Shown: positions 1 to 44,703, numbered from the stretch's first letter. The stretch is DNA of 44,703 bases from a virus (IMGVR_UViG_3300038393_001022); one strand, 5' to 3'. The notes: generated by a model not told the origin, from the sequence alone. Numbers and translations: made by a program.

Positions 1-127
1 GGCATCACGTTACTTAAGGTATAGCCCTAGGGGGTGGATTAGATGGCACAGTGGCTCGGCAACGACGGAACTAGCGTTGTAGGTTTTGGCTCAGGTAGCA
101 CAAACGGCACACGATTTAAGTGCTTGA
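1..127. repeat. Terminal direct repeat, copy 1 (identical to 44577..44703). Most likely a circular-assembly overlap.
   Basis: Bases 1-127 (ggcatcacgttacttaagg...tttaagtgcttga) recur exactly as the last 127 bases. The repeat covers the stop of CDS 43251..44600 and the first 85 nt of CDS 43..3126. Confidence 0.95.
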
Positions 128-3126
128 CTGACCAAGCCATTACTCAGATTGGTATGAAATTTGGTAACTCCTTTACGAACGTAGTTATCTCCCTATGGGA
201 CATGCCGGGGGGCTCCTCGCCGCTGTTTACGACGACGGTTAATACCGTAACGGGCTGGACCTTCGTAAACTGCGGAACTATTACACTTCAAGCAAATCGT
301 GAGTACGTTATCAGCTACTACCACCCTACCACCACCGTGACCCTGCAAGCTTCTGCGGAGATCGGCAATGTCTGGGTTTCGTCTACTGTCAGTGGCGTTA
401 CCTTCCAGTACGAAGGCGGTAACGACAACAGTGTAGGGAACACCAAGCCTACCAACCCTTCGCACTCCTCTGGGTCAACGTGGACTCCGGCTGTCGGCGT
501 CACCTTCACCCCCAACACCGCCCCCAACGCCCCTACAGGTCTAGGAGTCAGCACAACAGACGGCACTCCCCGGCTCTCGTGGACTTTCACGGACCCGGAC
601 GCCGGGAACACGCAGAGCGCCCGCGAGGTCGAAGTCTGGAACAGCGCCGGGACGGTACTGGTACACGGCTCGGGCAAGCTTGCCTCTGCCAACGCCTACT
701 ATGACATGCCCTCAGGCATCCTCGCCGCTTCGACCACCTACAAGTTCCGGGTGCGGGTGTGGGATCAGGCCGACGCGGTTAGCGCCTACTCGGCTTACCA
801 GTCTTGGACGACCGCCCAACCCTATGCCGCCTCCGGTACGTTCACGATGACGCCTATCGACATCGATCAGGGTGCCACGACGAACCACATGAACAATGGG
901 ACGTTCATGTGGACGGGCACTAAGCCCACCAGCACGAATGTAACGATCGAGTACCAGACGAGCGCCAACGGCACGACGTACGGCTCATGGAGCGCCGCTA
1001 CGGCCCTAGCGCCGGGCATAACGATGTCGATTCCGCCCTGTAAGCGGATCAGGTTCCGCTTTAACCTTTCGACCTCATACAACCTGAGCGCCCCCGCCAT
1101 CGAGAGCGTCGTCGTAACCTACCCGCAGGAGTACGCCTTCGTAGGGTCGTGGACATCCCCGGTCATCGACACATCTACCCTAGGGATCGTGGAGTCTTAC
1201 GGCGGCTCGATGACGCTCAATAAGACGCTCAACGGCGGTCTCGTCTACACTTCCTACCGGACCAGCCCGGATAACTTTACATGGTCCGGATGGACGGACA
1301 CGGCGGGCCCCCTAGGGTGGGCCCGGTATGTGCAGTTCAAGGTTGACATGTACCCGTCGGCTGACTTCACAGGGACCCCTAATGTGGATACCTTCGTCTA
1401 CACTTTCAACCAAAGCTACGAGAACTCCGGCGAGTGGGTGTCGGCGCCGATCAGCCTCAAGCATTTTGAGCCCGCCTCAGGCACCGTGGCGCAGGTCTCG
1501 ACGCTTAATGGCGGCACCGTCCAGCTTTACACCCGCTATCGGAACGATCCGGGCGCCCCGTGGTCGGCATGGGCGCTGACGAGCGGCGCTGTGGCGATGA
1601 CCGGGCTGGAGATGCAGACCAAGGTCGTTCTCACCCGTAACACCCTAGGGAACCAATCCCCTAGTGTGGATAGCACGACGACCACCTACACCGCCAACCG
1701 CAAGCGCGGTGTGTGGACCTCCGAGAGCATCGATGTCTCACAGGCGACGGACAAGACCACAGGTAAGGTATCCAGCGACCTCGTGCTTAACGGCGACGCA
1801 GTACAGACGCAGTTCCAGTACAGCACCAACGGTGGCTCAATCTGGTCCCTGTGGACTGACCCGCTCTCGGACGGCACGATGACGGCCCCGTCGAACACGA
1901 CTCACATTCGAGTCCGACATATCGTCACCGGGCCGAATGCTGAGATTCGCTCGACGACGGTGTACTTCGACGGGCTCCCGACCGTCACCGTCCTAGGGAA
2001 CAGCTTCCAGCCGAACGCGGTCTACGACTTCACCCAGCTTCGTGAGATCGTAATGATCTGCAACGGCAAGGACAACCCGCAGAAGTGGGACGGCACGAAC
2101 CCGATGACTACCCTAGGGGGCGGCCCCCCGGCGTTCCAGATGATGGAGACTCACCTTAACCGGGCGTGGGGCGCAGGCGACCCGGCTAACCCCTCCCGTA
2201 TTCGGTTCTCCGACATACTGAATCCGGAGTCGTGGCCCGCTCTTAACTTCATCGACTTCAACCCTGAGGACGGCGACCGCATCACGGCGCTCTACCGCTA
2301 TGGTCAGCAGTTGATCGTCTCCAAGCAGAAGTCGATGGCGCTCCTGACGGGCGACCGCTCGGCTAACTTCGCTGTGGTGTGGCTCGACCATCCCCAAGGA
2401 GTCGAAGGCTTCCAAGGGATTCAGACCGCCGACAAGTACCTCGCCTACATCGCTCGAGACGGCATCCGGTTCTCGGACCTTACCAAGTCGATCCTCGCTA
2501 CGGAGAAGCTGAAGCCCTCGTGGGAGTTGCTCAACCACCGCCGACTCTCACAGGCGACGATGATCTCGACGGGCAACTACTTGCTGTGCGCTCTCCCTAG
2601 TGCAGGCTCCCTAGTGAACGATCAGGTGTGGTTCTTCGACATCCTCCGGGCGGCATGGTCCATCATCCCGAATTGGAATATCTCCTCGTGGCTGAAGTTC
2701 CGGCAGTACGGGGAGGAGGTTCTGCTCGCGGGGGACTCGACGAAGGGCCAAATCTACGAGGTTTTCACCGGAACGACGGACGCCAACGGCGCCTACATGA
2801 CCTACGATTTCCAGACTAAGGATTTCGACGCTGACTACCCGGAGCGGTACAAGGTCTTGCGGGATTGCGTCTTGATCGTAGGCGGTGTCACCGAGGAGTC
2901 CGTCCTCACTGTGACCTTCGTTGTGGATGGTGTGGAGTATCCTGTGGATACCGCAGATACGACCATTCCGGCAGGCGCCGGGGCCATCCACTCGATTCGG
3001 CTGATTCCCCCGGTCTACGGGGCGGTACTCGGTCAGCAGGTGTCGATCCGGCTTCACGGACGCAACCACATCCACGCGCTCGCCCTAGGGGTCATCATCC
3101 GGGGCGTCGTACCGGGGGTCAGCTAA
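43..3126 (+). CDS. Large tail (nozzle/fibre-like) protein, 1027 aa: N-terminal DUF4082-like domain, FN3-like modules, C-terminal beta-propeller-like region
   Basis: Long ORF with an SD-like GGGGGTGG upstream of the ATG. The N-terminus (GTRFKCL...ISLWD...GWTFVNCG...YVISYY) resembles DUF4082. APNAPTGL...YKFRVRVWD is FN3-like. The position after the tail genes fits a T7 gp12-like slot. Function is inferred from position and composition. Confidence 0.6.
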   Translation: MAQWLGNDGTSVVGFGSGSTNGTRFKCLTDQAITQIGMKFGNSFTNVVISLWDMPGGSSPLFTTTVNTVTGWTFVNCGTITLQANREYVISYYHPTTTVTLQASAEIGNVWVSSTVSGVTFQYEGGNDNSVGNTKPTNPSHSSGSTWTPAVGVTFTPNTAPNAPTGLGVSTTDGTPRLSWTFTDPDAGNTQSAREVEVWNSAGTVLVHGSGKLASANAYYDMPSGILAASTTYKFRVRVWDQADAVSAYSAYQSWTTAQPYAASGTFTMTPIDIDQGATTNHMNNGTFMWTGTKPTSTNVTIEYQTSANGTTYGSWSAATALAPGITMSIPPCKRIRFRFNLSTSYNLSAPAIESVVVTYPQEYAFVGSWTSPVIDTSTLGIVESYGGSMTLNKTLNGGLVYTSYRTSPDNFTWSGWTDTAGPLGWARYVQFKVDMYPSADFTGTPNVDTFVYTFNQSYENSGEWVSAPISLKHFEPASGTVAQVSTLNGGTVQLYTRYRNDPGAPWSAWALTSGAVAMTGLEMQTKVVLTRNTLGNQSPSVDSTTTTYTANRKRGVWTSESIDVSQATDKTTGKVSSDLVLNGDAVQTQFQYSTNGGSIWSLWTDPLSDGTMTAPSNTTHIRVRHIVTGPNAEIRSTTVYFDGLPTVTVLGNSFQPNAVYDFTQLREIVMICNGKDNPQKWDGTNPMTTLGGGPPAFQMMETHLNRAWGAGDPANPSRIRFSDILNPESWPALNFIDFNPEDGDRITALYRYGQQLIVSKQKSMALLTGDRSANFAVVWLDHPQGVEGFQGIQTADKYLAYIARDGIRFSDLTKSILATEKLKPSWELLNHRRLSQATMISTGNYLLCALPSAGSLVNDQVWFFDILRAAWSIIPNWNISSWLKFRQYGEEVLLAGDSTKGQIYEVFTGTTDANGAYMTYDFQTKDFDADYPERYKVLRDCVLIVGGVTEESVLTVTFVVDGVEYPVDTADTTIPAGAGAIHSIRLIPPVYGAVLGQQVSIRLHGRNHIHALALGVIIRGVVPGVS

Positions 3127-3671
3127 TGGGCAACTATCAGCCGGGCAAGATGCCCGAAGGGAAGTTCATCGATCCGAAGTGGCTGAACCGGGAACTTCTC
3201 AAGGTGCAGACCGGGCTCAACTTCCTCGACGAGCGCAACTTCCCGAACAAGCTTGCCGCCTCCGACGTCATCGGTGATGGCACGGTCAAGTTAAACCACA
3301 CGAGCGGCTCGGGCGAGTTTCGGATTCCGATTCTCGCCCTTGCTACAGCCGCCTCAATCACGGCTACCACGCTGACGTCTCTAGGAGGCTTTGCCAACTT
3401 CGACCCCGCCCGTTGGGCGGGTGTCCCTATGTCTAACATCTACCTCGAACTGACCGCAGGCCCCGGCCTTGCATCTAGCCCCCTTACCGTAGAAATCTGG
3501 GGTACGGCAGGGGCTCTTGCCAGCACCACCCTTTCTACGGTAGGATTGACATATAGCGCAGTTCCGTTTACTAGTCTGCCTGCCTCTTCGCAGGCTCTCA
3601 CCCTGAAGGCGAAGGTGGGCTCTACCACAGCGGGGAGCATCATTACCGCCAGCATCCTCATTCGACCCTAG
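3126..3671 (+). CDS. Virion-associated protein, 181 aa (small internal-virion-protein position)
   Basis: Track ORF 2865..3671 trimmed to the ATG that overlaps the upstream stop (TAATG). The codon pattern is GC3-rich. No motif recognised. Confidence 0.55.
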   Translation: MGNYQPGKMPEGKFIDPKWLNRELLKVQTGLNFLDERNFPNKLAASDVIGDGTVKLNHTSGSGEFRIPILALATAASITATTLTSLGGFANFDPARWAGVPMSNIYLELTAGPGLASSPLTVEIWGTAGALASTTLSTVGLTYSAVPFTSLPASSQALTLKAKVGSTTAGSIITASILIRP

Positions 3672-3684
3672 GGAGGGATCGCAG

Positions 3685-10945: not shown

Positions 10946-10956
10946 GGGCAACAAAA

Positions 10957-10985
10957 AACCCCCTAGGGAACTTCCCTAGGGGGTT
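10957..10985. terminator. Bidirectional intrinsic terminator at the convergence of the two genome arms
   Basis: AACCCCCTAGGGAA-c-TTCCCTAGGGGGTT is a near-perfect 14+14 palindrome built from two CCCTAGGG copies. An A-run lies upstream and TTTCGTGTTT downstream. Confidence 0.75.
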
Positions 10986-11048: not shown

Positions 11049-11453
11049 TCAACAAGAGCCACGAGCATCAGATTTCACCTCCTTACGGAACTGCCAACGG
11101 AGCGGCTCACCAGCCGCGCACACCCCACAATCTGGTACATGCCCCATCGGCAAATGATCCATGTACCCTAGGCAGGCCACAACCTCTTCGACACTGTGGA
11201 CCACGAAGACCGGGACACCCTGCGCCTCCAGCCGATCGAACAATGCCGCCTGAAGGTCCGTAACCGGGTGTGGCTCGCCGGGCCGCTTGACTTCAAACCA
11301 CATCTGCCCTAGGCCCTTCTCGGCGTAGTAGAGGTCCGGGATGCCGGGCGCCTGAAAGGTGCCGCCGTGGAAGTTCAGAACCACACCGCCCCGGCCCTTG
11401 AGGTACTTGATGATGTGGCTCTGAATCGTGGACTCCTTAGGGCTTTTCGACAT
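11049..11453 (-). CDS. VRR-NUC domain nuclease, 134 aa
   Basis: Motifs GIPDLYY...MWFEVKRPGE...LQAALFDRLEAQGVPVFVVHSVEE match the VRR-NUC pattern (PD...ExK...Q). Confidence 0.7.
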   Translation of the reverse strand: MSKSPKESTIQSHIIKYLKGRGGVVLNFHGGTFQAPGIPDLYYAEKGLGQMWFEVKRPGEPHPVTDLQAALFDRLEAQGVPVFVVHSVEEVVACLGYMDHLPMGHVPDCGVCAAGEPLRWQFRKEVKSDARGSC

Positions 11454-11928
11454 CGCTACCCCCTAAGATCGACAGCTTCGAGAGCATCCTCCGGGCCTCT
11501 TCCCGGACCAGCTTTTCGAAATCCACCTTGAGGGCAAGGTGCTTTTCGATCAGCGCCGTATAGGCCCTGTCGAGGGTCTGATTGGTCTGCTCGTAGATTA
11601 GGACCTTAATTCGGTGATCGAGGATCGACTCGGCGTGTGCCCGCAAGGCCGCGTTGATCTCGTCGGTCCACGATACCTCGGTCTTGATCCGCTCCTTGAG
11701 TGCCTGCCCTAGGGTGCCGTTGAGCGCCGGGACAGTCGCGCCGCCGTGAAGCTGGTAGTCCAAGGCACGATTAACCCGGTCAGCGAGCATAGTGTAGATG
11801 GGCTCCATCGTCTCCGCGTCACCAAGCAGAGCGTTGAGGGCGCCCTGCAAGGACTTCTTCACACCGTCGAGCAGGCCCATGCCCTCCAGCATATTGAGGA
11901 CTTCCTTCGTCTCCAGCTTCAGTTTCAA
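11437..11928 (-). CDS. Hypothetical protein, 163 aa
   Basis: ORF with coding-like composition. Its ends overlap both neighbours by a few bases (operon packing). Confidence 0.6.
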   Translation of the reverse strand: MKLKLETKEVLNMLEGMGLLDGVKKSLQGALNALLGDAETMEPIYTMLADRVNRALDYQLHGGATVPALNGTLGQALKERIKTEVSWTDEINAALRAHAESILDHRIKVLIYEQTNQTLDRAYTALIEKHLALKVDFEKLVREEARRMLSKLSILGGSDVEKP

Positions 11929-12074
11929 CGCCGACCCCTCCGCTTCTTAATCTTGCGGTTCAACCAGTCATCATCGTCCCGGCGCCACTCCTCCCTAGGG
12001 AGCGGCAGGAAGGCCGCCCCGTGAGGAGTCGTCAGCAGAACAGAGACGGCGAGGATCAGGGCGAGGCTACGCAT
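11925..12074 (-). CDS. Small secreted or membrane-anchored protein (~49 aa; track ORF trimmed)
   Basis: AAGGAGGA lies 6 nt before the ATG at 12074. Signal-peptide-like MRSLALILAVSVLLTT is followed by a basic tail (KIKKRRGRR). Confidence 0.45.
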   Translation of the reverse strand: MRSLALILAVSVLLTTPHGAAFLPLPREEWRRDDDDWLNRKIKKRRGRR

Positions 12075-12192
12075 CGCCATCCTCCTTCGTTGACTCAAAG
12101 AACCAAACAGCGTCGGAAAAGCCCCGCAGGTGCCCGATCTTGTATCCGGCGAAACCACAGAACGCCCCTACAAGCAACAGCCCAATAAGCAT
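12067..12192 (-). CDS. Candidate 41-aa membrane peptide (not in the ORF track)
   Basis: ATG at 12192 follows GGGGTGA. The product is MLIGLLLVGAFCGFAGYKIGHLRGF.... Its stop TAG overlaps the downstream ATG (ATGCGTAG). Confidence 0.35.
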   Translation of the reverse strand: MLIGLLLVGAFCGFAGYKIGHLRGFSDAVWFFESTKEDGDA

Positions 12193-12245
12193 AGTTTCAC
12201 CCCATAAGGAGGGGCCAGCCCCTAGTGAGACTGGCCCCAGTGTGG

Positions 12246-12794
12246 CTACAGGATGTCGGCCTCGTCGAGGGTGCCAGCACCGCCCGAGGGCGCTGAAGCG
12301 TCCAGCGAAGCGAGGTCTTCCGCGTCATCATCGCCCGTGACCGCCGTGGAGGCACCCATCGTGACGAACTTCGAAGCCGGGTAGGAGGCGACGATCTTGC
12401 CGAACTTCTTCGTCGGGTCCTTCTTGCCGGGCTCCATCACGACCTCAGCCGTGAACTCTCGGTTCTTCAGCTTGCCGAGGTCGAGGTTGACCGCCGCCTT
12501 GGGGATGTCCTTGTTCAGGACCGCCATCAGGAGGTTGCGAAGCCGGAAGAGGGCCTTCGGGGAGAGCGAGCAAATCTCGTTCAGGGTCTTACCCTTGTGG
12601 TCAGCCGGAGCGACGACCTCGCAGGCGAATTCGAGGTACGGGTACTCGCTGGAGCCGGACTCCTTCTTCTGGATGCCCGTGATCTTGAAGAGGTAGGTGC
12701 CATCCTCGTCAACGAACTTGGACGGCGGCGCATCGGAGACCCCGGTGAAGTCGAGCGTGAAGGAGCCCTTAACGTTCGTGAACTCGTTAGCCAA
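12246..12794 (-). CDS. Candidate ssDNA-binding protein (DUF669 / T7 gp2.5-like class), 182 aa, acidic C-terminal tail
   Basis: TTG start 9 nt after GGGAGGA. The C-terminus is ...GDDDAEDLASLD...LDEADIL. It lies directly downstream of the Sak4-like ATPase, the usual partner arrangement. Function is inferred. Confidence 0.45.
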   Translation of the reverse strand: MANEFTNVKGSFTLDFTGVSDAPPSKFVDEDGTYLFKITGIQKKESGSSEYPYLEFACEVVAPADHKGKTLNEICSLSPKALFRLRNLLMAVLNKDIPKAAVNLDLGKLKNREFTAEVVMEPGKKDPTKKFGKIVASYPASKFVTMGASTAVTGDDDAEDLASLDASAPSGGAGTLDEADIL

Positions 12795-13025
12795 GGTGTG
12801 ATATCCTCCCTAGGGACTTTATTTGAGGCCAGCCCGCCCACCGCTAGGCAGGCCAGCCGAGGGACTAAAGGTGAAAAGAAGCGGGAACCTTAATCTGAGA
12901 GAGCCGCTGGTACTCCAAGGCTACGGCGACACCGTAAGCCAGTTTAAAGTACAGGGCTCGCTGGCTGTATGGGAACTCACGAGGCAGGTCCGGCTCGCCG
13001 CCGAAGTAGAGTTGTTTCAGCACCC

Positions 13026-13982
13026 CTAGAACACCTTCCCGAAGCCCATCCGGTCGAGCACCGCCCGGAGGTTGGCACCCACAACCACAGCCGGGAGGTT
13101 TCCGGTGCGGTCCCCGGTGAGGATGTTCTCACTAGGGCCAAACTGGATGCGGAACTGGGTAACGGGCTTGCCTGTGGTCTTATCCTCCACGGTCTTCTTG
13201 AAGGTGCGACCGATCACGTCGGCGTCACCGAGGACGTAGTTACGAACCTGCGTCGGCAGGTCCGGGTAGATGTCGTAACCGGACATCTCGTCATCACCCT
13301 CACCGCCGGACTTCTCCTGCACAAGCCATACTTGATGCATGGGCAGGGTGGAGAAAGCCGCCAGCCAGTAGATCATCTTCTGGCCTGCCGTGCCGTAGTC
13401 CTTGAGCATCGGCGTCATAACGTCCTTGGTGGGGTCGAACGCCGCGCTCCCTAGGACCACATGCCGCAGGATCAGTTGCCGCATCCGGGTCGTAGTGTCG
13501 AACCCGAGGATGTCGTACTTGAGCGTCCCGGCGTCGGCCTGCGCCTTGAGGTAGTAGTAGAGGGCTTCGACCTCTTCCCACGTTTCAACCTTGTCCTTGG
13601 ACTTCGGATACTCGGAGGCGCCCGAGCCCCGGATGGAGAGCGTACCCTCCTCCAGCTTGACGACGAGCACCCCGGCGCCGCCGCTCCCTAGGAACTTGGT
13701 CTTGCCCGTCTTGTTGCGACCGTAGATCACGACGCGGGCATACTTCTTGGCGGCGCCCGCTTCGCCGATCTCGTCCTCAAGGTCGAAGGCGGCCTTGGCA
13801 GGTGTGGTTGCAACCGTCTTGGTCTTGCCCTTCTTAGCAGACCCCGCGACAGGTGGGGTAGAGGCTGGGGCCGCCTCAACCACAGAGAAGGCGTCGTCCT
13901 CGATAGGCACTTCCCCTAGGGAGAGGGCGCCGCCCTCACCCTCGAAGCCGCCGCCGGGTCCGGTCATCTTGTCGTCAGTCAT
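13026..13982 (-). CDS. Sak4-like / AAA_24 RecA-family recombination ATPase (track ORF trimmed to the ATG at 13982)
   Basis: Walker A VVIYGRNKTGKTKF. GAGGAGGAAG precedes the ATG, which overlaps the upstream stop (GATGACTGA). Confidence 0.65.
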   Translation of the reverse strand: MTDDKMTGPGGGFEGEGGALSLGEVPIEDDAFSVVEAAPASTPPVAGSAKKGKTKTVATTPAKAAFDLEDEIGEAGAAKKYARVVIYGRNKTGKTKFLGSGGAGVLVVKLEEGTLSIRGSGASEYPKSKDKVETWEEVEALYYYLKAQADAGTLKYDILGFDTTTRMRQLILRHVVLGSAAFDPTKDVMTPMLKDYGTAGQKMIYWLAAFSTLPMHQVWLVQEKSGGEGDDEMSGYDIYPDLPTQVRNYVLGDADVIGRTFKKTVEDKTTGKPVTQFRIQFGPSENILTGDRTGNLPAVVVGANLRAVLDRMGFGKVF

Positions 13983-14985
13983 CGTCTTCCTCCTCGGCGA
14001 CAGGCTCCTCGACCTCTCGCTTGGTGTATTGCTCAGCACGGATAAACTCCGTGTTAGAACCGAACATTTCAGCTTGGCACAAGGGCTTGTAGGCGCACCA
14101 GTCACAGTCCCTAGTGATTGTCCTAGGGTAGAACAGCTTCTCGGGCTCCTTGTGGTTCAGGTACGGCTCGATCATTCCGGCGGTCAGGGTGGCCTCCTTG
14201 ACGACCTCTCGGACCATCCGGGCAGGCCTAGGGAGGAATTCCCGCCGGAAGAAGACTTTGCCCTCCAGCTTGAGCCGCATGTCGGCGTAGTCAGCCGGGT
14301 TGAGCCCGGCCTTTCGCAGGGCGGCCTCGTAGGTGTACCAGTCCGTGGTGATAGCCGCCTTGGACATCGTACCCTTTTGAGTCAACTCCGGCGTCTTGGG
14401 CGCCTTGGTGGAAAGGTAGTTGAAGCAAATCCAGTTGATCGGCTCGCCGTAGACCTTCTCGGCGGCGAAGGGGTAGAGGGTTGTTTGCCAGTCGGTCAGC
14501 CGCATCCCCTCACTAGGAATGGTGCCGACCGTCTTATGGTCAATGATCCCTAGGCCCATCTCGTCCCGGACCACAAGATCGAAGCGGCCCTCGTAGATGT
14601 GCCCATTCGGGAGTTCAACCTCGAACGCCTTCTCGACATCGACGATCTCGAAGTCGGCGTCGGCCCGCTCCCTAGTGAGGAAGTTCAGGTAGTTACGCAT
14701 GATCGCATAGGAGTCAGCGATGATCTGCGCGTACTCGGCCTGCTCCTCCTCGAAGAGGTTGGCCTTCATGTAAGCCTCAGCGTCCCGTAGAGGCTGGGTC
14801 CAGTCCTTGCCCCTGTAGTGCGTCTCCAAGCAGTTGTGCAGGAGGACACCACGGGCGATCGGGACCGCCTGCCGACGGGGCCGAAGCCCTTGGATGTACT
14901 GGTATAGGTACTTCCTACGGCACCGCAGGAAGGTGTTCAACTCGGAGACTGAGACCTTAATCCGTGGTGTGGTCAACGCATCCAC
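13975..14985 (-). CDS. PD-(D/E)XK exonuclease, Cas4/RecB-like, with a Cys cluster
   Basis: SVSELNTFLRCRRKYLYQY, GRFDLVVRD, IIDHKT and a C-terminal CDWCAYKPLC (C...CxxCx5C arrangement). Confidence 0.7.
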   Translation of the reverse strand: MDALTTPRIKVSVSELNTFLRCRRKYLYQYIQGLRPRRQAVPIARGVLLHNCLETHYRGKDWTQPLRDAEAYMKANLFEEEQAEYAQIIADSYAIMRNYLNFLTRERADADFEIVDVEKAFEVELPNGHIYEGRFDLVVRDEMGLGIIDHKTVGTIPSEGMRLTDWQTTLYPFAAEKVYGEPINWICFNYLSTKAPKTPELTQKGTMSKAAITTDWYTYEAALRKAGLNPADYADMRLKLEGKVFFRREFLPRPARMVREVVKEATLTAGMIEPYLNHKEPEKLFYPRTITRDCDWCAYKPLCQAEMFGSNTEFIRAEQYTKREVEEPVAEEEDDD

Positions 14986-15698
14986 CTCTTCTCCTTCGCG
15001 GCGGTAATCAGGTTACTGGCTTCACCCTTAGTGAGGTCCTCCATGTTGTGGAACTCCCGGCCTACCACAGCCTCGTATTCCTCCCATGTAGCAGAGCACA
15101 TAGGGTCTTCCACTAGAGCCCTTTTAAGTAAGCCCACCTGCTTCTCCGTGGCAGGGTCGTCGTACCACCTCGGCCTAGGTGTGCCATCGGCTAGGGCTCT
15201 CGTTGGTCTAGTGATCTCGTCAAAGCTGAGCATTTCGGCCTCTAAGCCCTTGAGAGGCCTGTTGACCGTGCGGTTGTTGCGGTTGTCGGTGAAGTCGATC
15301 GTAAGGCTCAGGCCGGGCTTGAGGTAGAAGCGAACGATCTGATTGCCCCTTACGGGGTCGGGGGATACCTCCACCTTGTAGACCCTAGCCCGCTCCTCTT
15401 CGGAGAGACATGTACGGGCGATCGCCTCCGCTGTCTTGCCTTCCCTCACCATAGCCCTGTGGCTAACGCTCAACTCCTTAACTTCGTCGTCCTCTAGCCA
15501 AGGTACATCAGCCCTAGGGGGATTCTTTAATCCCTCCACGGTTCTCGTAAGCCAAGACTCCGTAGGGACACTGTTTAGATAGACCGCCCCTAGATTTTTT
15601 AGGTCTACAGGCTTTACTACCGTAGCATCCTCTACCTGCTTCGCCATCTCGTCAGGCACCTCGACGAACAGCTTATCAAGGCCGTTGTCGTCCGGCAC
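14973..15698 (-). CDS. Hypothetical protein, 241 aa
   Basis: GTG start after AGGGGGTGA. The C-terminal ATEKQVGLLKRAL...LTKGEASNLI resembles a short helical motif common in phage replication-module proteins. Confidence 0.55.
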   Translation of the reverse strand: MPDDNGLDKLFVEVPDEMAKQVEDATVVKPVDLKNLGAVYLNSVPTESWLTRTVEGLKNPPRADVPWLEDDEVKELSVSHRAMVREGKTAEAIARTCLSEEERARVYKVEVSPDPVRGNQIVRFYLKPGLSLTIDFTDNRNNRTVNRPLKGLEAEMLSFDEITRPTRALADGTPRPRWYDDPATEKQVGLLKRALVEDPMCSATWEEYEAVVGREFHNMEDLTKGEASNLITAAKEKRWMR

Positions 15699-15744
15699 GT
15701 TGTCACCCCCTGCCGATCAGCTTGTCCGAACCGACAAACACAGT

Positions 15745-16071
15745 CTACTCGGGATCGGTGGCGCTGTCAAGCCACTCCTTGAAATTCCAATCCGGGTCGT
15801 TGTAGTGGGCCTGCCACGCCGACATGAAGCCCCTGACCGGGACCGGGCACTCGTAACAGTCACCTGTCACAACGTCGGAGATATAGGCGGTGTGGATCGT
15901 CAACAGCCCCGCGTCTTCCCTGTCGGTGAGGTACTTCAGGGCGCCGTGGGCGGTCCAGTGGGAGATACCGTTGCTGGTCACGACGATGCCATAGTACCGG
16001 ATGGCCTCCGGGCGGCGGCGCAGGTAATCCGATCGGGTCTTCTTCCGGGTGGCCTTAGTCTCTTCGCTCAC
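15745..16071 (-). CDS. Hypothetical protein, 108 aa
   Basis: AAGGAGGA precedes a GTG start that lies inside CCCTAGTG. Confidence 0.55.
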   Translation of the reverse strand: MSEETKATRKKTRSDYLRRRPEAIRYYGIVVTSNGISHWTAHGALKYLTDREDAGLLTIHTAYISDVVTGDCYECPVPVRGFMSAWQAHYNDPDWNFKEWLDSATDPE

Positions 16072-16090
16072 TAGGGATTCCTCCTTGTGG

Positions 16091-18631
16091 TTAGGGGTGC
16101 CATTCTACGGCCTCGCCCCATGACGGGCCGACTTCGATCTCTGCCGTCAGGGGGACGGAGAGGTTGACGTTGAACTTTTTGGGTAGGATAACACTAGGGA
16201 CAGCCCACTCGATCGAGTTTTTTACGAGTGTGGCTACCACATCCACAGCGTCTTCGTCTACCTCCAGCGCGATAGCATCGTGGATTAGGCCGATCAGATC
16301 GAACTTCGGCCTAGCGCGTTCCTGATGGTAACGATCAACCTCCCCCGCCGCCAGAACGATAATGTCGTTGGCGAACGACTGGACCTCGAAGTTGGTCCCC
16401 TCTCGGATAGCCTCCTCCCGAATGGCCTCGTCCGGCGACCACACGTTAGGGAGGCGGCGGTAGCGCCCTGTAGCTGACCGGATGTACCCTAGGGTGCTGA
16501 TCGTGTTCCGGCAACGTTGGTGCCACGGGGCGATGCCGCTATACAGCTTGAACCAGCCAGCCCGGTTGGCCTTAGCCTCCTCGTCGGTCAACTTAACACC
16601 ATACTGGAGGTAAGAGAATCGCTTGTACCCACGCCACTGTTGCCCGTAGAGCAGGCCGAAGTTCGACGCCTTGCCACCCTGCCGTTGCTCCTTAGTGATC
16701 GAGCCCTTCGGCGTCCCGGTGATACCCCACACAGTATGCTTGTGAAGGTCTTCGTTACGCCGGATCAGGTCGATCATCGTCATCTCTTGGGCACAGTGGG
16801 CGCCGATACAAAGTTCCATCTGCTTGCCGTCGGCCTCTAAGAACACCCGGCCCGGCGGGGCCCCGAAGATCGAGCGGAGGAGTGCATCCCTAGGGATTTG
16901 CTGGAAGTTGGGCTCCTCGGACGACAGGCGCCCGGTCTTCACGCTCCCTAGGTTGTAGAGCGGGAAGATGCGGGGGACGCCGAACGCCGCCTTAGAGTCC
17001 TGCACGAAACCCTTCCACGCCGTCACGAACTTCAGACGGTCCCTAGCAAGGTTGTACTCTCGTAGGATAGCCGCCAGTTCAGCGGCCTCTTTGACGTTCG
17101 ACTCAGCGGCGATCGTAATGAGCGTCTCCTTGTCGGTGCTGGCGGCGTCGGCCTCGGTCATCTTGATTGGGTCAAGGCCGAACCCCTTCGAGCCGAAGAA
17201 GACCTCTGCCTTCTGCTGAGAACTGTTCCAGTTGACCCCCTCGATCGGCGATAGCGTCTCGAGTTTCCCTAGGGAGTCTTTGATCCGGGCCTCAAGCTGG
17301 ACCCCGGCCTCGTGAAGCTTGTCCTCGTGAACCCACACGCCCTTCTGCTCGATGCGCTCCAGCATCCGGGAGGCTGGCATGATGATGTGGGCCATAACCT
17401 TCGTGAGCCCGGCGTCCTTGAGAATCTCTTCCCTAGTGCGCTCGTACTCCTTCATGTTGTAGTAGATGTCGAGGGCGAGGTAGTAGGCGAGGTCCATAAT
17501 CGGATAGTCCTCGTCATACCGGACGTTCTTGCCGTAGTCTTGAGCGCCATAATGGGCCTTGGCGTGATGCTTCAGGCCGTTGCGGCGGTTCTCGTCAAGG
17601 AGGCAGTTGGCGAGGTAGGGGTCGAAGGTCTGGTACGGCTCAACTCCGGCACGACCCCTAAGCCAACGGTTGTCGTACTTGCCGTTGTAGGGCGCCTTCT
17701 TAAGCTTAGGGTCCTTGAGGATGCGACGGACGAGCGCCGTAACTAGCATAGACCACAGGGAGTTCGTCCCCGCCGGACCCTGCTTGTGCTCCCACGGCAC
17801 GACGAAGATGTGTTTGCCGTCAAAGCCAAAACCGATCATGGTCAGCTTGCCTTGGTGTGGGCGGGCAGGCTTGTCGGCGTCGAAGAATTCGAGTTGCTCC
17901 TTGGTGCGCTCGTCGGAGTTCTCGATGTCGTAGACCATGTAGGTCTCGCACGTCTCATAGGCCTCTTCGAGAATGCTGAGATCATCTGCATCCTCGACGT
18001 AGGTCCACTTTAGGTCACTAGGGGGCTTGTGCTTGCCTTTGATGGCCCCGGCGAAGTACGCCATGTCTTCCGTGAACGCCGCCTCTTCCCCCGGTTTACG
18101 CAGTACGTAGGAAGGGCTGTAGATCGGAAACACCTGAATCGACTCCTGAAGCGAAGCATCCCCTAGCTTCAACTTCAGGGGGTGGAACTCCCCCCGCTTC
18201 TTGGTGATGCCGCCACCGCCACAGAGGGCTTTGAGGGCGGCGTCCCCTAGGGCGAGGATGTACTTGGGCCGGACCCGCTCGATCTCGCCCGCCAGATGGG
18301 TCTTGGCACAGGTCGAAATCTGCTTAGCTGTGGTCTTGCCCTCGTAGCCGGGGTAGCACTTGACGGCCTTGGTCCAGTAGTCAACTTTAACCCCAGCATC
18401 CCTAAGTTTAATCAGCAGAAACTTAACAGCGGGGCTACTCGTTAGAAACGTGGCGTTTGCTTCGTCTTCTCCGTAGGTAGTGACGTCACCTACGACCATA
18501 ATCTCGCCGGACGTAAGCCCGCCACCCATAATCCCCGGATGCTTGCACTTCGCATGAAGTTCACAGGCCGTACACGACACGATCTCACCCCCTGCGTTTG
18601 TCAGTCTACCAGTCCTTGTCAGGCTTGTCAA
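16091..18631 (-). CDS. Family-A DNA polymerase with 3'-5' exonuclease and an N-terminal family-4 UDG-like domain
   Basis: Exo I MVYDIENSD. Motif A LEADGKQMEL. Motif B RQGGKASNFGLLYG. Motif C LIHDAIALEV. The N-terminus has CTACELHAKC...VVGDVTTYGEDE...IYSPSYVLRK. An alternative start is the GTG at 18580, after GGGGGTGAG. Confidence 0.85.
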   Translation of the reverse strand: MTSLTRTGRLTNAGGEIVSCTACELHAKCKHPGIMGGGLTSGEIMVVGDVTTYGEDEANATFLTSSPAVKFLLIKLRDAGVKVDYWTKAVKCYPGYEGKTTAKQISTCAKTHLAGEIERVRPKYILALGDAALKALCGGGGITKKRGEFHPLKLKLGDASLQESIQVFPIYSPSYVLRKPGEEAAFTEDMAYFAGAIKGKHKPPSDLKWTYVEDADDLSILEEAYETCETYMVYDIENSDERTKEQLEFFDADKPARPHQGKLTMIGFGFDGKHIFVVPWEHKQGPAGTNSLWSMLVTALVRRILKDPKLKKAPYNGKYDNRWLRGRAGVEPYQTFDPYLANCLLDENRRNGLKHHAKAHYGAQDYGKNVRYDEDYPIMDLAYYLALDIYYNMKEYERTREEILKDAGLTKVMAHIIMPASRMLERIEQKGVWVHEDKLHEAGVQLEARIKDSLGKLETLSPIEGVNWNSSQQKAEVFFGSKGFGLDPIKMTEADAASTDKETLITIAAESNVKEAAELAAILREYNLARDRLKFVTAWKGFVQDSKAAFGVPRIFPLYNLGSVKTGRLSSEEPNFQQIPRDALLRSIFGAPPGRVFLEADGKQMELCIGAHCAQEMTMIDLIRRNEDLHKHTVWGITGTPKGSITKEQRQGGKASNFGLLYGQQWRGYKRFSYLQYGVKLTDEEAKANRAGWFKLYSGIAPWHQRCRNTISTLGYIRSATGRYRRLPNVWSPDEAIREEAIREGTNFEVQSFANDIIVLAAGEVDRYHQERARPKFDLIGLIHDAIALEVDEDAVDVVATLVKNSIEWAVPSVILPKKFNVNLSVPLTAEIEVGPSWGEAVEWHP

Positions 18632-18634
18632 GCA

Positions 18635-20035: not shown

Positions 20036-20041
20036 TAGTGA

Positions 20042-20293
20042 TTACCCCCTAAGATGACCTCGGGCATGGCTGACGAACTCAACCGAGCCGTCGCCGGGAG
20101 CCACTTCGACCGGGCTGGTCTTCTGGGTAAAGTCCATCGCGTCGAGAACCTGACCCGCCACCCATTTCTGCCGGGCCATCATGTTACCGATGCCGACCCG
20201 ACCGCAGTTCTGGGCGGCGGCCCACGTATCCTCGATCAGCGCCTTCAGGTACTCAGCCGGAACCGTAACCATCGGCTCAATCTTCCCGTTCAT
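20042..20293 (-). CDS. Hypothetical protein, 83 aa
   Basis: ORF packed between the primase-helicase and the SNF2 helicase. Its start overlaps the upstream stop. Confidence 0.5.
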   Translation of the reverse strand: MNGKIEPMVTVPAEYLKALIEDTWAAAQNCGRVGIGNMMARQKWVAGQVLDAMDFTQKTSPVEVAPGDGSVEFVSHARGHLRG

Positions 20294-27866: not shown

Positions 27867-27924
27867 GGCGGTATCCTCCCTAGGGGCGTTATTTAGGGTG
27901 CCGGAACCGGGGCCGGAGCCTATG

Positions 27925-28242
27925 TTAAAGTCCTGCAAGCCGCTCGGCGAGGGGCGCCCACAGAACCTTGATCGAAACACCTTGGGGGCCGTGGTTGGTA
28001 TGCACCGCCAACCCGGCGACGTTGAGAAGCTTTAGGGCGAAGTGGGCGTTGCAGGTGTGGCGCCCGTGGTTGATCTCCTTCAGGGCCAGTTCGTAGGACC
28101 GGGCTCCGGGGTTCTTCAGCATGAAGTTCCCTAGGTTCTTCATCGAGAGCCGCTCGCCCTTGTTCATCGTCTCGACGAGACGATCGAAAGCTTCCCTGTG
28201 GATCTGGTCGTAGGTGACGGGGTTATGAATGGGGTGAATCAT
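27925..28242 (-). CDS. Hypothetical early protein, 105 aa
   Basis: GGGAGGAA lies 5 nt before the ATG. Confidence 0.55.
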   Translation of the reverse strand: MIHPIHNPVTYDQIHREAFDRLVETMNKGERLSMKNLGNFMLKNPGARSYELALKEINHGRHTCNAHFALKLLNVAGLAVHTNHGPQGVSIKVLWAPLAERLAGL

Positions 28243-29742: not shown

Positions 29743-30455
29743 GGTTACTCCTCCTAGGGATCTTAGTTGAGTCCGGAACTGCGGGCGGGTCATCCCCTTT
29801 GCCCGTGGCGTGTGGGTTGTTTAGGGCACAACCCACCGAGAAAGCCCTAGCTTCGGTGTGGTGTTTACCAGACATGGCACACCAAGCACGGCGGTTCGTT
29901 AGTGTGGTTCTGCGGGACTAAGAAGACATAGGTATCCTAGGGCGCCTGTGCTTTCCGTCTACTCTGCGCCCTCTCTGCTATTAACTCCTCGATGCTGACC
30001 ACATGGTCTCACTGGTGTACCTACTCGCCGACGGCCTTTCAACCGCCAGCTACACTCCGAAGAGTGCGCTTGTCCCTTACCCACCTGACGCTTCGTAGTT
30101 TCCGGTGTGTCCCCCGTTACCGAAGGTGTCCTCCGTACTCGGCCTCCCGGCCCGTCATGCCTCTAGGGCTGTCTCGTTCCCCAGCGTTCTCACATCGGTT
30201 CGTCTTAGATTGTGGCACCACACGGTTGCCAGCCGACCGCTTGTCGTTGTCATCGGTGCCGATCAGCTTGTCAACATCTTACCTTGCCGTTATGCCGCCG
30301 TCAAGATGGTTAGACCAAAAAATTTTAAAACCCGCAAACTGGCTTCACAGGCCGATTTGCGGGCTTTTTGTAAATTCCTGTCAGCAACTTCTTTGACCTT
30401 CCCTGATCTTCGCCTAGGAAGGGGTTACGGGCGCATCCACAGTACGCACGTATCC
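29743..30455 (-). other. ORF-free island (~0.7 kb): candidate structured ncRNA or long leader
   Basis: There is no ORF of 60 aa or more on the transcribed (minus) strand. The plus-strand ORFs have junk composition. Hairpins lie at 29812-29836 and 29852-29886, and a terminator lies at the upstream edge. Confidence 0.4.
30317..30370. terminator. Bidirectional intrinsic terminator downstream of CDS 30456..31202
   Basis: A-run, then CCCGCAAActGGCttcacagGCCgaTTTGCGGG, then CTTTTTG. Confidence 0.7.
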
Positions 30456-31202
30456 CTAGGGCTCCTCCTCCGCTGTGCCCCAAGGCTTTCCGTCCCAGTA
30501 GTAGGCCGCGTAGCGTACTGCATACGTATCCACGAGAGTTGCATAATCCTTATCGTCTGCGTACTTCCAGACGTCAACCTTCAGGGGGAACGGCACATCC
30601 GTGCGCTCGACTAAGGTCTTCAGCGCCTTCGAGAGGTCTGAGACCACGAAGTAAACCTCTACATCACCCGGCAAATAAGGCACTCCTCGGGCCGCCGCTG
30701 AGCGTGCGGGCTCCGTAGCCGTGGCCCCGAACACTAGGGTAAACCCTGCCCACTCCTTCGCCTCAGCCCTGAAGTGCTCTGCGAGGCCGGGCCGGAAGTA
30801 CCACGGGCGCATCGACGGCAACTTCGAAGACCACACAGAGAACCCGTACGGCTTCGGCGGCGCCACCCAGTTCGTGAAGTGCTCCGCGCCGAGGGCGCCC
30901 GACGTCGGGTACTTCCAGTGGGCGTCAAAGTACCCTTTGAGTTTCACCTCGTCTTTCCCTAGGGACTCCGACGTAACGCCTGCGGGCCCGGACGCCACAG
31001 AGCCAGCCTCCACACCGCCTAAGGGCTCAGCGCCACCTTCGACGACCACAGTCATCTCCAAAGGCTCGGCTGTGGGCTTCGACGTCACCTCTGCGAGGGC
31101 CATTTGGACTAACTCACCGTCGCTCAGGTGCTCACCATAACGTTTCCGAAGGGTTTCTAAGTACGTAGTCTGGACGCGAACGGCCTTACTCGGTACGGTC
31201 AT
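30456..31202 (-). CDS. Hypothetical early protein, 248 aa (first gene of a short leftward unit)
   Basis: GGGAGG lies 7 nt before the ATG. A promoter-like element lies upstream and a terminator downstream. Confidence 0.6.
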   Translation of the reverse strand: MTVPSKAVRVQTTYLETLRKRYGEHLSDGELVQMALAEVTSKPTAEPLEMTVVVEGGAEPLGGVEAGSVASGPAGVTSESLGKDEVKLKGYFDAHWKYPTSGALGAEHFTNWVAPPKPYGFSVWSSKLPSMRPWYFRPGLAEHFRAEAKEWAGFTLVFGATATEPARSAAARGVPYLPGDVEVYFVVSDLSKALKTLVERTDVPFPLKVDVWKYADDKDYATLVDTYAVRYAAYYWDGKPWGTAEEEP

Positions 31203-32948: not shown

Positions 32949-33668
32949 TTAGACCAGTCTCCTTCTTCGCCCTGCCACACCTTCGGCCCACCCCCCTGTG
33001 GGGACTGGTATCTCCGTCGGTGCGGCCTCTGGGATCATTCAGTTTTCAAGGTACATGCCATCCATCCGGCCCCTATGTGGGTTCGGCGCCCTGCCGCTAT
33101 TGGCGTTTGTCGGCGTCGCTAGGTTTGTCGGGGCCGTCACCACCGTACTACGTAGGGCAAAAACCTGTCAACCCCCCTATTCGAAACTGGAATGAATTTC
33201 GGCGAAAAAGTTGCAAAGTCGCCGATTATCCATTCCGGCTAGGCATAGGTGACGGGAACGTATGTTCGAGCAGCGTTGAACAAGTGTTCGCCCACCATGC
33301 GGCCTACGCATACATAGGCCTGCCCTAGGGTAACGCTCTGGGACTACCCACCCTAGGGCATGTCCTTCCAAACCTGTACTGTTCATGCTACCTAAGCACC
33401 CTAGGGCCGTAGTTTACATAACGTGGAAAATATGGGGTTGTATGGTATACCCTAGAGAGGGTCCTTAGAATCCCTAGGGCCGCCCTTGGGCCCCGCTCCT
33501 ACGTCGCGGGGTAGACATGTGTGCTCACGAGGACAAATTCTGCGGTCTAGACAAACCAAGCAACACTATGTACACTAAAAAGGGGACCCAAAAAACGCAC
33601 CCACCCCTGCCTTACCTCCTGAATACCTCCCTGCATAAGTATTCATTTTGCGAAAGGTGTGAACAGCG

Positions 33669-34127: not shown

Positions 34128-34691
34128 ATGCCCGGAGCCGATCCGCTCGACCTGACCCCTGCCTCAGACCTGCTCGACGACATGCTCGAAGCGCGGCTAA
34201 TCGAGGTCCCGGCCCCTGCTGTGGTCCCTAGTGAACCCGCCGAGGGCAAGGGCGTCGATCTTCGCTCCAAACCCCTAGTGAAGAACGCCGAGGACATGCT
34301 CGGTTTGTCCGATTACCCCACCCTCTCGACCGAGCAGAAGGTGTTTCTGATCGCTTTCGCCGCCCACGGCACCGTCTCGCAGGCTGTGGTGATGTCCGGC
34401 GTCTCCCCTAGGAACCACCGGAAGTGGCTCAAGGAGGACGAGGAGTATCAAGAGGCCTTCGCTACCGCCATTGAGGTCCACGCCGACAAGCTGGAGGAGG
34501 TCTCGCTCAAGGCGTCGATGGACCCGCTCAACTCGGGCGAGCGCATGTTCCACCTGAAGGCCCGGCGCCCGGACAAGTACGCCCCTAAGGCGGCTGTGGC
34601 TGTGAAGGGTGACATCAAGCACACCCACTCAATGGCTGATCTGGCCCGTCAGGCGTTCTCGGAGGGGGTCTTGGACGGCGATGACGAGTAA
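34128..34691 (+). CDS. terS: Terminase small subunit, 187 aa
   Basis: HTH-like LSTEQKVFLIAFAAHGTVSQAVVMSGVSPRNHRKW and HLKARRPDKY are typical of phage small terminases. It lies upstream of terL. Confidence 0.65.
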   Translation: MPGADPLDLTPASDLLDDMLEARLIEVPAPAVVPSEPAEGKGVDLRSKPLVKNAEDMLGLSDYPTLSTEQKVFLIAFAAHGTVSQAVVMSGVSPRNHRKWLKEDEEYQEAFATAIEVHADKLEEVSLKASMDPLNSGERMFHLKARRPDKYAPKAAVAVKGDIKHTHSMADLARQAFSEGVLDGDDE

Positions 34692-43238: not shown

Positions 43239-43250
43239 GGAGGGAGACAT

Positions 43251-44600: not shown

Positions 44601-44703
44601 CCCTAGGGGGTGGATTAGATGGCACAGTGGCTCGGCAACGACGGAACTAGCGTTGTAGGTTTTGGCTCAGGTAGCACAAACGGCACACGATTTAAGTGCT
44701 TGA
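44577..44703. repeat. Terminal direct repeat, copy 2 (identical to 1..127)
   Basis: Exact match to 1..127. The start of CDS 43..3126 is re-read at 44619. Confidence 0.95.

Follow-up and report, generated by a model that had tools for sequence, protein, structure and literature searches.

A CTAG-centred octameric palindrome iterated throughout a 44.6-kb phage genome

The viral contig IMGVR_UViG_3300038393_001022 (44,703 bp, GC 60.2%), analysed here over its whole length and referred to as the window, is saturated with the 8-bp palindrome CCCTAGGG. The window contains 73 exact copies, 72 of which fall within its 44,576 bp of unique sequence, corresponding to one copy per 619 bp (1.6 per kb). 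CCCTAGGG is the most frequent octamer of this genome, occurring twice as often as the next. We tentatively favour the reading that CCCTAGGG is a recognition word for a protein, probably one encoded by the phage itself, and that this word has spread genome-wide in this lineage. We favour it mainly because an array of the word upstream of the small-terminase gene (terS) is conserved in relatives without coding copies, and also because no cellular genome saturated with the word emerged from the listed matches in GTDB or from our probes of JGI (Joint Genome Institute) metagenomes.

Excess of the octamer and its use within genes

The last 127 bp of the window (44577-44703) are an exact repeat of positions 1-127, by which the copy at 25 recurs at 44601 as the 73rd. 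This overlap suggests a circular or circularly permuted assembly, through circularisation or terminal redundancy, rather than defined ends. An earlier inspection of the DNA (the sequence-only reading) had reported about 72 exact copies, about 35 further sites that keep the CCTAGG core with a 7/8 match, and about 40 copies of a one-off variant. Our counts agree with the first figure and, at 34 sites beyond the exact copies, with the second. The variant proved abundant as claimed, at the somewhat lower number of 34 (CACTAGGG, n=19, and CCCTAGTG, n=15), and CACTAGTG occurred another four times. All but two of the start positions it had listed were correct (Table 1); the entries 1188 and 9311 should read 1178 and 9312. 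The CCTAGG core itself occurs 109 times in the unique sequence. Collectively, exact copies, core-keeping sites and the three variants amount to 147 motif-like sites, of which about 75 are near matches, or one site per approximately 300 bp.

This abundance is far from what chance would provide. Markov models of orders 0, 1, 2 and 3 predicted 1.31, 1.29, 1.83 and 5.2 copies, respectively, and the tens-fold excess of the sequence-only reading is thus borne out (72 copies against 1.3-1.8 for orders 0 to 2). From order 4 upwards the expectation nears the observed count, and the maximal-order comparison that had been suggested as a check returned no excess at all (72.6 expected at order 6, a ratio of 1.0). 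This is not a refutation, since the 7-mers and 6-mers from which that expectation is built are themselves almost wholly made of CCCTAGGG; the ratio says only that the two flanks are independent of each other given the core. The second suggested check, a shuffle of synonymous codons within each gene that preserves both protein sequences and codon usage, gave 1.75 ± 1.32 copies (maximum 8 in 1000 shuffles) against 61 observed in genes. Over low-order Markov models and codon shuffles, the excess amounts to 35-55 times.

We considered whether the copies might be a by-product or an artefact, namely of codon or codon-pair bias, of stop codons joined to Shine-Dalgarno sequences (TAG-GGAGG), of compensation for the avoidance of other palindromes, of a mobile mini-repeat, or of misassembly. 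Some observations are in line with this. Twenty of the 46 stop codons are TAG, more than any other stop, a preference that we consider unusual at 60% GC, and many of these stops lie within CCCTAGGG or a variant of it. Fusions of a stop codon or the motif with the ribosome-binding site, as CTAGGGAGG, are found at several gene starts, and palindrome avoidance does reshape codon choice in this genome. Nevertheless, only about ten copies touch gene ends, and a codon shuffle that additionally forbade the 26 hexameric palindromes absent from the genome still yielded 0-5 copies of CCCTAGGG and 7-16 of CCTAGG, indicating that the enrichment is no by-product of palindrome avoidance. Unlike repetitive extragenic palindromes (REP) or miniature inverted-repeat transposable elements (MITE), the copies stand in frame within genes, with neither flank conservation nor block insertion: the flanks carry at most 0.11 bit of information, the spacing between next neighbours is near random (coefficient of variation 0.87 over the 44.6-kb genome), and in alignments with orthologues the copies arise by substitution and without indels. 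As for misassembly, the same contig with the same copies is present in four Logan assemblies and one JGI metagenome, at 8 to about 150 substitutions from the window, and related phages share the word. The samples with the phage are SRR35145397, SRR35147169, SRR35148478, SRR35148586 and JGI 3300037419. Five independent assemblies rule out the assembly artefact or chimera that the sequence-only reading had named as a possible objection. For the bulk of the copies we thus reject this family of explanations, to which we give next to no weight.

The anatomy of the word was resolved by its imperfect copies. Combinations of half-sites (CCC/CCC, CCC/CAC and CAC/CAC) occur in the proportions 72 : 34 : 4, and independence at half-site frequencies of 0.81 and 0.19 predicts 72.0 : 34.0 : 4.0. 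Likewise, the 121 CCCTAG and 116 CTAGGG among 205 CTAG predict 68.5 octamers, against 72 observed. The two half-sites C(C>A)CTAG therefore combine independently around a shared CTAG. Outside motif contexts CTAG is depleted (58 occurrences against about 160 expected by composition). Near-cognate words are used in a graded manner wherever the coding context makes them available: C-ACT-AGG-G in 8 of 13 contexts, CCCTAGTG in 9 of 22 and 8 of 20, and N-CC-CTA-GGG in 21-54% (TCC- 9/22, ACC- 7/13, GCC- 6/28). CCCTAGAG and CCCTAGCG are poorly used, at 1/13 and 1/36. A binding word would be expected to show such grading, and the word takes the form C(C>A)CTAG(G>T)G around the CCTAGG core.

Copies lie on both arms of the genome, within and between genes, as had been proposed. 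Sixty are coding, 48 of them read as xCC-CTA-GGG and 12 as C-CCT-AGG-G, and the remaining 12 are intergenic or at gene ends. Although 83% of the copies are thus inside genes, their density is 1.5 per kb in coding against 2.9 per kb in non-coding sequence. The coding opportunities are almost exhausted (74-93%): 48 of the 65 [S/T/A/P]-Leu-Gly tripeptides are written as the octamer, as are 13 of the 14-15 x-Pro-Arg-[GAVDE] contexts, and 12 of the 17 [STAP]LG exceptions are a single base away from it. Among the 168 CTA codons, 56 stand outside even a partial motif context. The peptides given as examples by the sequence-only reading (TLGI, PLGW, TLGN and ALGV, and QIPRD in the polymerase) were all correct, and its view that the constraint acts on the DNA rather than on the protein is supported by the codon shuffle, by the use of two reading frames, by the use of available contexts and by the residues found in orthologues.

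The word also alters protein sequences, as judged from two lines of evidence. Relative to amino-acid composition, SLG, TLG and ALG tripeptides are over-represented 2.4-3.1-fold, and orthologues carry different residues at octamer sites (in the portal, LPRA against LEEA, LQEA or LYEA and PLG against PLE or TLE; in the capsid, SLG against GLG; in PolA, SLG against HKE). At 50-60% identity, about 7 of 38 sites keep the same peptide in the orthologue, which is about the background expectation; the few shared sites include PLG in the large terminase (TerL) and ALG in the lysin and in a tail protein. Among near-identical variants, approximately 165 substitutions changed none of the CCCTAGGG sites, against 1-2 expected, too few events at sites to speak for directional gain or loss.

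The remainder of the palindrome spectrum is bimodal, with most hexamers avoided and a few enriched. Of the 64 hexameric palindromes 26 are absent, and of the 32 for which 14 or more copies are expected, 21 are missing. The lost words include GCCGGC, CGGCCG, CCCGGG, CCGCGG and CGCGCG, with an expectation of about 33 copies apiece. Of 1076 comparable hexamers that are not palindromic, just 36 do not occur, and those listed contain CCWGG- and AGCT-type words; CCWGG itself occurs once (147 expected) and GCWGC twice (110 expected). At the other extreme, CCTAGG exceeds its expectation from base composition 7.5-fold (109 against 14.5), followed by GGCGCC (79 against 33), CGATCG (42 against 14.5), GACGTC (34 against 14.5) and AAGCTT (19 against 6.3), and for GGGCGCCC the count is 15, where the codon shuffle gives 3.7. 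The relatives described below avoid largely the same words; others flip, such as GGCGCC, which is absent from all relatives, and CACGTG, which is absent from this phage and occurs 13-14 times in the relatives L226 and L232. In this genome short palindromes are demonstrably under very efficient selection, and the spectrum shows that the phage DNA is exposed to many restriction systems. Selection operates here at both extremes at once: 26 words have been erased, and one has been amplified about 50-fold. What surprises, in a phage that purges its other palindromes, is the sign and strength of the signal. This action at both extremes is of relevance to models of the restriction arms race between phages and hosts and to host prediction from k-mer signatures. 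The sculpting of synonymous sites in short palindromes is familiar from the avoidance of restriction sites by phages, which is strong here; the enrichment of CCTAGG, the site of AvrII and BlnI, has the opposite sign.

Array upstream of terS in the phage and its relatives

Four exact copies and one variant are clustered 650 bp upstream of terS, in the divergent intergenic region from which the early and replication arm runs leftward and the structural arm rightward (Table 1). In the window, the copies of this array extend to RCCCTAGGGY. Searches with the portal and the polymerase retrieved relatives from Logan and JGI data: L226, L227 and L228/L229, whose portals are 52-58% identical to that of this phage, as well as L232 (PolA, 47%; a 38.9-kb contig), the more distant L230 (portal, 39%; a 46.6-kb contig) and L233 (PolA, 34%). 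Every clade member that includes the region (this phage, L226, L227 and L229) carries an array 164-680 bp upstream of terS. The four array regions cannot be aligned with each other except at CCCTAGGG, which is the sole recurring element there, and the small genes that flank the array are not conserved. TerS is the only neighbour conserved in all four, with orthologues 40-50% identical in L226, L227 and L229. In the 9.7-kb contig of L227, five of six copies lie inside 170 bp, for which we estimate a chance probability of about 1e-6.

Outside the array, the relatives differ in their use of the word. CCCTAGGG is the top or a near-top octamer of close relatives at 0.14-0.62 per kb, with Poisson probabilities down to 5e-12 (L232), and most of their copies are at positions that are not homologous to those of the window. 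L232 writes 6 of 9 [STAP]LG and 2 of 4 xPR[GAVDE] contexts as the octamer. The corresponding figures are 1/4 and 1/3 in L226, 0/4 and 1/6 in L227, and 1/6 and 0/2 in L228, and CTA makes up only 1-2% of the leucine codons of L227 and L228. Genome-wide spread is, from these comparisons, particular to some lineages, and we propose that the array upstream of terS is the ancestral, functional locus. The retention of the array in L227 and L228 despite scarce coding use is not predicted by a uniform mutational process driven by the host. L233 displayed no such palindrome signal. L230 (Logan contig from SRR23882317, positions 1-13968) carries no CCCTAGGG. In its place AAGCTT is dispersed over the 14 kb in 28 copies, most of them in the context YAAGCTTR; genes contain 20 of the 28, against a codon-shuffle null of 6.4 ± 2.3. 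A different word, AAGCTT, takes a similar role in that genome. The relatives thus run from array only to genome-wide, one with a different word, and provide a natural comparative series together with a short list of candidate proteins.

Three features that the sequence-only reading had not noted, namely the conserved array, the independence of the half-sites and the strong avoidance of most other palindromes, tip the balance in favour of a site that is recognised by a protein and functions in the phage itself. We propose that CCCTAGGG would be read by a strand-symmetric, sequence-specific DNA-binding or DNA-processing protein, whose primary site would be the 3-6-copy array ahead of terS, in the control region where early and late genes diverge. 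In this phage and in L232, copies have also become fixed chromosome-wide by point substitution, at all places where [S/T/A/P]-Leu-Gly, Pro-Arg-[GAVDE] or a TAG stop can be accommodated by the proteins, and as the nearest variant elsewhere. The reader would be phage-encoded: the small terminase, a MarR-like regulator or an unrecognised early protein. By its dense copies the phage chromosome might be marked as self, in the service of packaging, regulation or protection; the mark would be a GC-rich CTAG palindrome, presumably rare in bacterial DNA, set in a genome purged of most other palindromes.

A further-reaching version of this proposal, which we regard as rather unlikely, is a phage-autonomous identity tag, in which the phage's own reader nucleates on the array upstream of terS while the word is selected into every tolerated position and the other palindromes are erased. 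If true, packaging, regulatory or protective machinery could distinguish the DNA of the phage from that of the host purely by sequence, base modification playing no part. This would be the positive mirror image of restriction avoidance, and the first highly iterated palindrome whose reader and function might be resolved in a 45-kb genome.

Two genes are candidates for the reader. The small terminase is a candidate for binding the array by its position, and the MarR-family protein, the only recognisable transcription factor, is an alternative candidate by its family (Table 1). A third lead came from a 105-residue open reading frame (ORF), in which the same 30 residues matched IHF-beta (NCBIfam, E = 0.008), an HU-like Pfam family (E = 0.2) and HU/IHF chains of the PDB (E ~1). 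It was dropped when a single-sequence AlphaFold2 model proved mostly helical, with a predicted local distance difference test (pLDDT) score of 57.

Several observations weigh against the reading of CCCTAGGG as a word recognised by a phage protein, beginning with the loss of this third lead and with the fact that the two remaining candidates are named by position or family only. With 83% of copies in genes and about 75-90% of opportunities used, the pattern looks more like a systematic drive than like selected binding sites. At the genome-wide density of the window the array is not statistically exceptional in this genome alone, and its weight comes from conservation in relatives. In L230, the excess of AAGCTT is genome-wide without a clear array. 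GGCGCC, CGATCG, GACGTC and AAGCTT are also 2-3 times enriched in this phage, and their status flips between relatives, which is easier to explain through differing methylation and restriction repertoires of hosts than through several phage-encoded readers. Finally, host-derived loads have a precedent in PaV-LD, an isolated Planktothrix phage that carries the HIP1 palindrome of its host at 0.54 per kb.

Host-derived explanations and known systems

HIP1 (GCGATCGC) is a highly iterated palindrome (HIP) of cyanobacteria, and the likeness to it that the sequence-only reading had drawn holds at the descriptive level. Similar to HIP1 and its alternates GGGATCCC, TCGATCGA and CAGGCCTG, CCCTAGGG is a GC-rich octameric palindrome that lies tens-fold above Markov expectation at a density in the order of 1 per kb; substitution has dispersed it both within genes and between them, with unconserved flanks and with codon preference overridden. 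Unlike HIP1, it is CTAG-centred and is known from a phage clade, not (yet) from a cellular chromosome. Its opportunity use and density are very high, and it forms a conserved array at one control locus. Its sites appear not to be positionally conserved between relatives; conservation between related genomes above that of control sequence is a HIP feature (Xu et al. 2018). Periodicity on a scale of 10-90 kb, for which a 44.6-kb genome is short, is another. A methyltransferase for the core encoded in the same genome is a HIP feature (Elhai, PMC4390886), and the phage genome encodes no cognate methyltransferase; the finding is HIP-like by description. No CTAG motif is among the highly iterated palindromes of Elhai 2015 (PMC4390886), and a 2026 preprint (10.64898/2026.06.24.733823) gives GGGATCCC, TCGATCGA and CAGGCCTG as the only alternates. 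The statement that no CCCTAGGG HIP had been described can thus be upheld and extended to any CTAG-centred HIP in the literature searched. What HIPs do has been a question for 30 years, addressed almost exclusively in multi-megabase cyanobacterial chromosomes. The present phage shows a signal of this kind in only 44.6 kb, with a new word centred on CTAG and with enough strength to change amino acids, and a small genome with an array and graded relatives makes the question of function more tractable.

The strongest competitor is a host-imposed process of the HIP1 type, in which a CCTAGG-type methyltransferase (orphan or repair-linked) together with biased repair or selection, as in Elhai's ratchet, enriches the word in all replicating DNA; the phage would have acquired the signature of its host or be selected to mimic it. 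We consider this unlikely, though a serious possibility. The M/K degeneracy at positions 2 and 7 resembles the recognition sequences of restriction-modification systems, and the near-saturation of coding opportunities would follow from such a drive. The palindrome spectrum differs among relatives as if each host had its own enzymes, and coding use varies among them as a host-dependent drive would. The descriptive features of HIPs are all present, and a site per 0.3-0.6 kb fits the argument made by Elhai (PMC4390886) that relates HIP density to the range of mismatch repair.

Phages of cyanobacteria provided a mixed precedent. In PaV-LD, HIP1 is the commonest octamer (27 in 50 kb), with 27 of 28 CGATCG inside HIP1, and many IMG/VR contigs carry 2-5 HIP1 per kb, their phage nature being unconfirmed. 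Meanwhile, the two lytic cyanopodoviruses tested contained none: the Anabaena phage A-4L is free of GATC, CGATCG and HIP1 over 41.7 kb, and the Phormidium phage Pf-WMP3 of CGATCG and HIP1. The extension of HIP1 to the phages of cyanobacteria, made in passing by the sequence-only reading, is therefore true of some and not of others: phages can carry the HIP of their host but need not. The present phage resembles PaV-LD in that its top octamer is a highly iterated palindrome. PaV-LD, however, has a HIP1-rich host, methyltransferases and an integrase, whereas this phage has none of those genes and is three times denser in its word.

Other evidence speaks against a host-imposed origin. Genes for a methyltransferase, an integrase or recognisable lysogeny functions are missing from the phage, which relies on its own polymerase for replication; a uniform drive leaves unexplained the array conserved in relatives without coding copies; sites appear no more conserved between relatives than background; and the approximately 130 substitutions that separate the window from the JGI variant include no C-to-T decay at sites.

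The search for a host also gave no support. GTDB genomes were scanned for a triple-copy pattern, and among the matches listed no genome was saturated with CCCTAGGG. These matches were mainly local REP-like clusters, as in a metagenome-assembled genome (MAG) of Porphyromonas. The only isolate with dispersed copies among them was Hymenobacter polaris RP-2-7, with 11 copies in 8 kb (contig1, 368001-376000; 0.2 expected). Its copies are mostly between genes and at gene ends and may be an intergenic repeat family of that genome. We rejected it as a host: apart from the intergenic placement, its GC content is 67%, and the phage uses strong Shine-Dalgarno sites (GGAG or GAGG at no fewer than 29 of 46 genes), a heavy use that argues against a Bacteroidota host. 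JGI metagenome contigs were probed with conserved recA or rpoB peptides spelled with CCCTAGGG. The recA double-site probe returned 0 matches, though the phage itself is present in JGI data, and the 12 matches of the rpoB probe were all chance, in motif-poor contigs. The host origin implied by the sequence-only reading is thus unproven. Loosely, homologues of the lysin point to Bacillales, since the nearest named cellular relatives of its amidase-SPOR part are CwlC-type (sporulation) amidases of that order, at 35-42% identity. The contig with the best lysin homologue belonged to another phage without the motif, and plasmid matches of the primase were uninformative.

Another host-centred explanation, which we hold to be improbable, is a signal for host machinery other than methylation or repair, that is, a Chi-like stop for a RecBCD- or AddAB-type nuclease or a self sequence for uptake or segregation, which would protect or favour the phage DNA. 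Chi and uptake sequences take the same form of a dense, strand-symmetric DNA word 6-8 bp long, and the annotated genes of the phage include none recognised as a Gam-like nuclease inhibitor. Known Chi and uptake sequences are, however, non-palindromic and orientation-dependent, and the density of Chi is about ten times lower. HIP1 has been linked to DNA uptake in recent work (bioRxiv 10.1101/2024.09.10.611283; 10.64898/2026.06.24.733823). Such a signal leaves the array upstream of terS unexplained, and the searches described above found no host genome with the word.

Returning to recognition by a phage protein, two kinds of known systems offer partial parallels. Dispersed operators, such as the stoperators of cluster A mycobacteriophages, the C1 operators of P1 and the KorB sites of RK2, comprise 12-36 sites of 13-17 bp, are mostly intergenic and often oriented, and are bound by a known element-encoded repressor of a temperate or plasmid element. 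Like them, CCCTAGGG has a primary cluster in a control region (33323-33479, with homologues in L226, L227 and L229) and scattered copies. The present sites differ in being 8 bp long, palindromic and far more numerous (72 exact and about 75 near), in lying mostly in genes and in the lack of lysogeny genes. Packaging sites are the second parallel: the R sites of lambda and pacL/pacR of SPP1 are repeated short boxes bound by the small terminase, and the array similarly consists of repeated short boxes just upstream of terS, in a position kept among relatives. In contrast to pac and cosB, which are confined to one locus, 68 further exact copies are found elsewhere in the genome, and we know of no pac or cos system with a genome-wide spread of its packaging box. 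The operator of CsoR (TACCCCCTAGGGGTA, PMC3902906) was discarded as a model of the array, for the copies of this genome are without its TAC/GTA flanks.

Gene content and other features

The gene content is that of a podovirus-like tailed phage organised in three blocks, with the assignment to tailed phages following from the presence of large-terminase and portal genes (Table 1). Searches of Pfam, PHROGs and NCBIfam detected no DNA methyltransferase, Vsr or MutH-like gene, and a scan for methyltransferase motifs was negative. Family searches of the phage proteins likewise detected no integrase, partition or recognisable immunity or lysogeny gene, and no tRNA genes were found in the genome. A 20-kb megablast against INPHARED gave no match to isolated phages. 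In IMG/VR we found no portal relatives, and large-terminase relatives were at most 40% identical and without the motif.

Table 1. Positions of CCCTAGGG copies, arrays, genes and other features (window coordinates unless a relative is named)
Feature	Position	Strand	Basis or remark
Exact copies of CCCTAGGG (starts)	25, 1178, 1310, 1643, 2111, 3083, 3666, 4007, 4355, 5648, 6206, 6371, 7148, 7310, 7604, 7766, 7871, 8681, 9194, 9297, 9312, 10173, 10233, 10377, 10961, 10974, 11707, 11993, 12808, 13914, 15512, 16487, 16888, 17267, 18245, 20497, 21826, 21991, 22374, 22703, 23267, 24041, 24367, 24971, 26565, 27133, 27878, 30454, 30957, 32151, 33323, 33351, 33399, 33472, 35615, 35669, 36114, 36844, 37312, 37561, 38751, 39194, 39795, 40920, 41216, 41847, 41870, 41996, 42221, 43661, 43882, 44188, 44601		
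CCCTAGGG array	33323..33479		four exact (33323, 33351, 33399, 33472) and CCCTAGAG at 33451
Array in L227	250-418		6 copies over 170 bp, among them 5 of the 6 exact copies of L227
Array in L229	315-514		5 copies
Array in L226	2475-2576		3 copies
CCCTAGGG ahead of first gene (start 43)	25..32	+	overlaps G-rich ribosome-binding stretch
CCCTAGGG as stop	3666..3673	+	TAG ends ORF 3126-3671; GGG enters Shine-Dalgarno CCCTAGGGAGGG of gene from 3685
CCCTAGGG as stop	30454..30461	-	TAG ends conserved early ORF 30456-31202
Word or stop codon fused to ribosome-binding site (examples)	3666-3685, 5590-5611, 12794-12815, 28243-28262, 29146-29165		
Terminator-like bidirectional hairpin	10955..10985		AAAAAACCCCCTAGGGAACTTCCCTAGGGGGTTTCGTGTTT; two copies (10961, 10974); between convergent lysin and VRR-NUC genes
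Tail and lysis block	43-10945	+	profile searches
Lysin, NAGPA + Amidase_3 + SPOR	9776-10945	+	domain matches
Replication/recombination block	11049 to ~32950	-	family searches
Replication genes	11049..22263	-	VRR-NUC nuclease, Sak4-like AAA_24, PD-(D/E)XK exonuclease, UDG-PolA fusion, SNF2 helicase, RepB-primase/AAA_25 helicase
UDG-PolA fusion	16091-18631	-	domain matches
Large CobT-like vWA protein beside CobS-like AAA_5 ATPase	22898-27306	-	domain matches
MarR-family winged-helix regulator	27519..27980	-	Pfam MarR, E = 9e-13
ORF of 105 residues	27925-28242	-	HU/IHF-like reading dropped
Sigma-70-like hexamers	31224-31261		
Direct repeats	31274-31498		three of 33 nt (31322, 31387, 31466), two of 39 nt (31274, 31420)
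Structural block (TerS, TerL, portal, adaptor)	33517-44600	+	profile searches
Small-terminase-like gene	34128..34691	+	PHROG 4044 terminase small subunit, E = 2e-11; weak Sf6_terminase match
Large terminase	35305-36816	+	profile match; context gene
SU10/P22-like portal	37160-39121	+	profile match; nearest isolated-phage portal 24% identical

The direct repeats, located where the early arm is poor in genes, resemble iterons or repeated promoters and are a better candidate than the array for an origin or promoter, which makes an origin role of the array less likely. The hairpin between the convergent lysin and VRR-NUC genes folds at -29.3 kcal/mol (z = -5.9 against shuffles). Several genes of the phage begin behind C(A/C)CTAGGGAGG, in which the word or a stop codon is fused to the Shine-Dalgarno sequence.

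The same octamer was also encountered in settings of a different kind. In the Porphyromonas sp. MAG Meta-Z_MAG_40, a REP/MITE-like element present at many loci carries 3-4 copies of CCCTAGGG at a spacing of 22-23 bp (GCCCTAGGGnGAACGnnnCGTTC...), a different phenomenon that shares the octamer. Two IMG/VR contigs, 3300013126_000145 and 3300034375_007338, contain longer palindromes centred on CCCTAGGG, with 13 and 15 octamer copies, respectively. Judging from the octamers that recur in them, the repeated units would be approximately TGACCCTAGGGTCA and GGTTTTCCCCTAGGGG, which look like operator-type sites.

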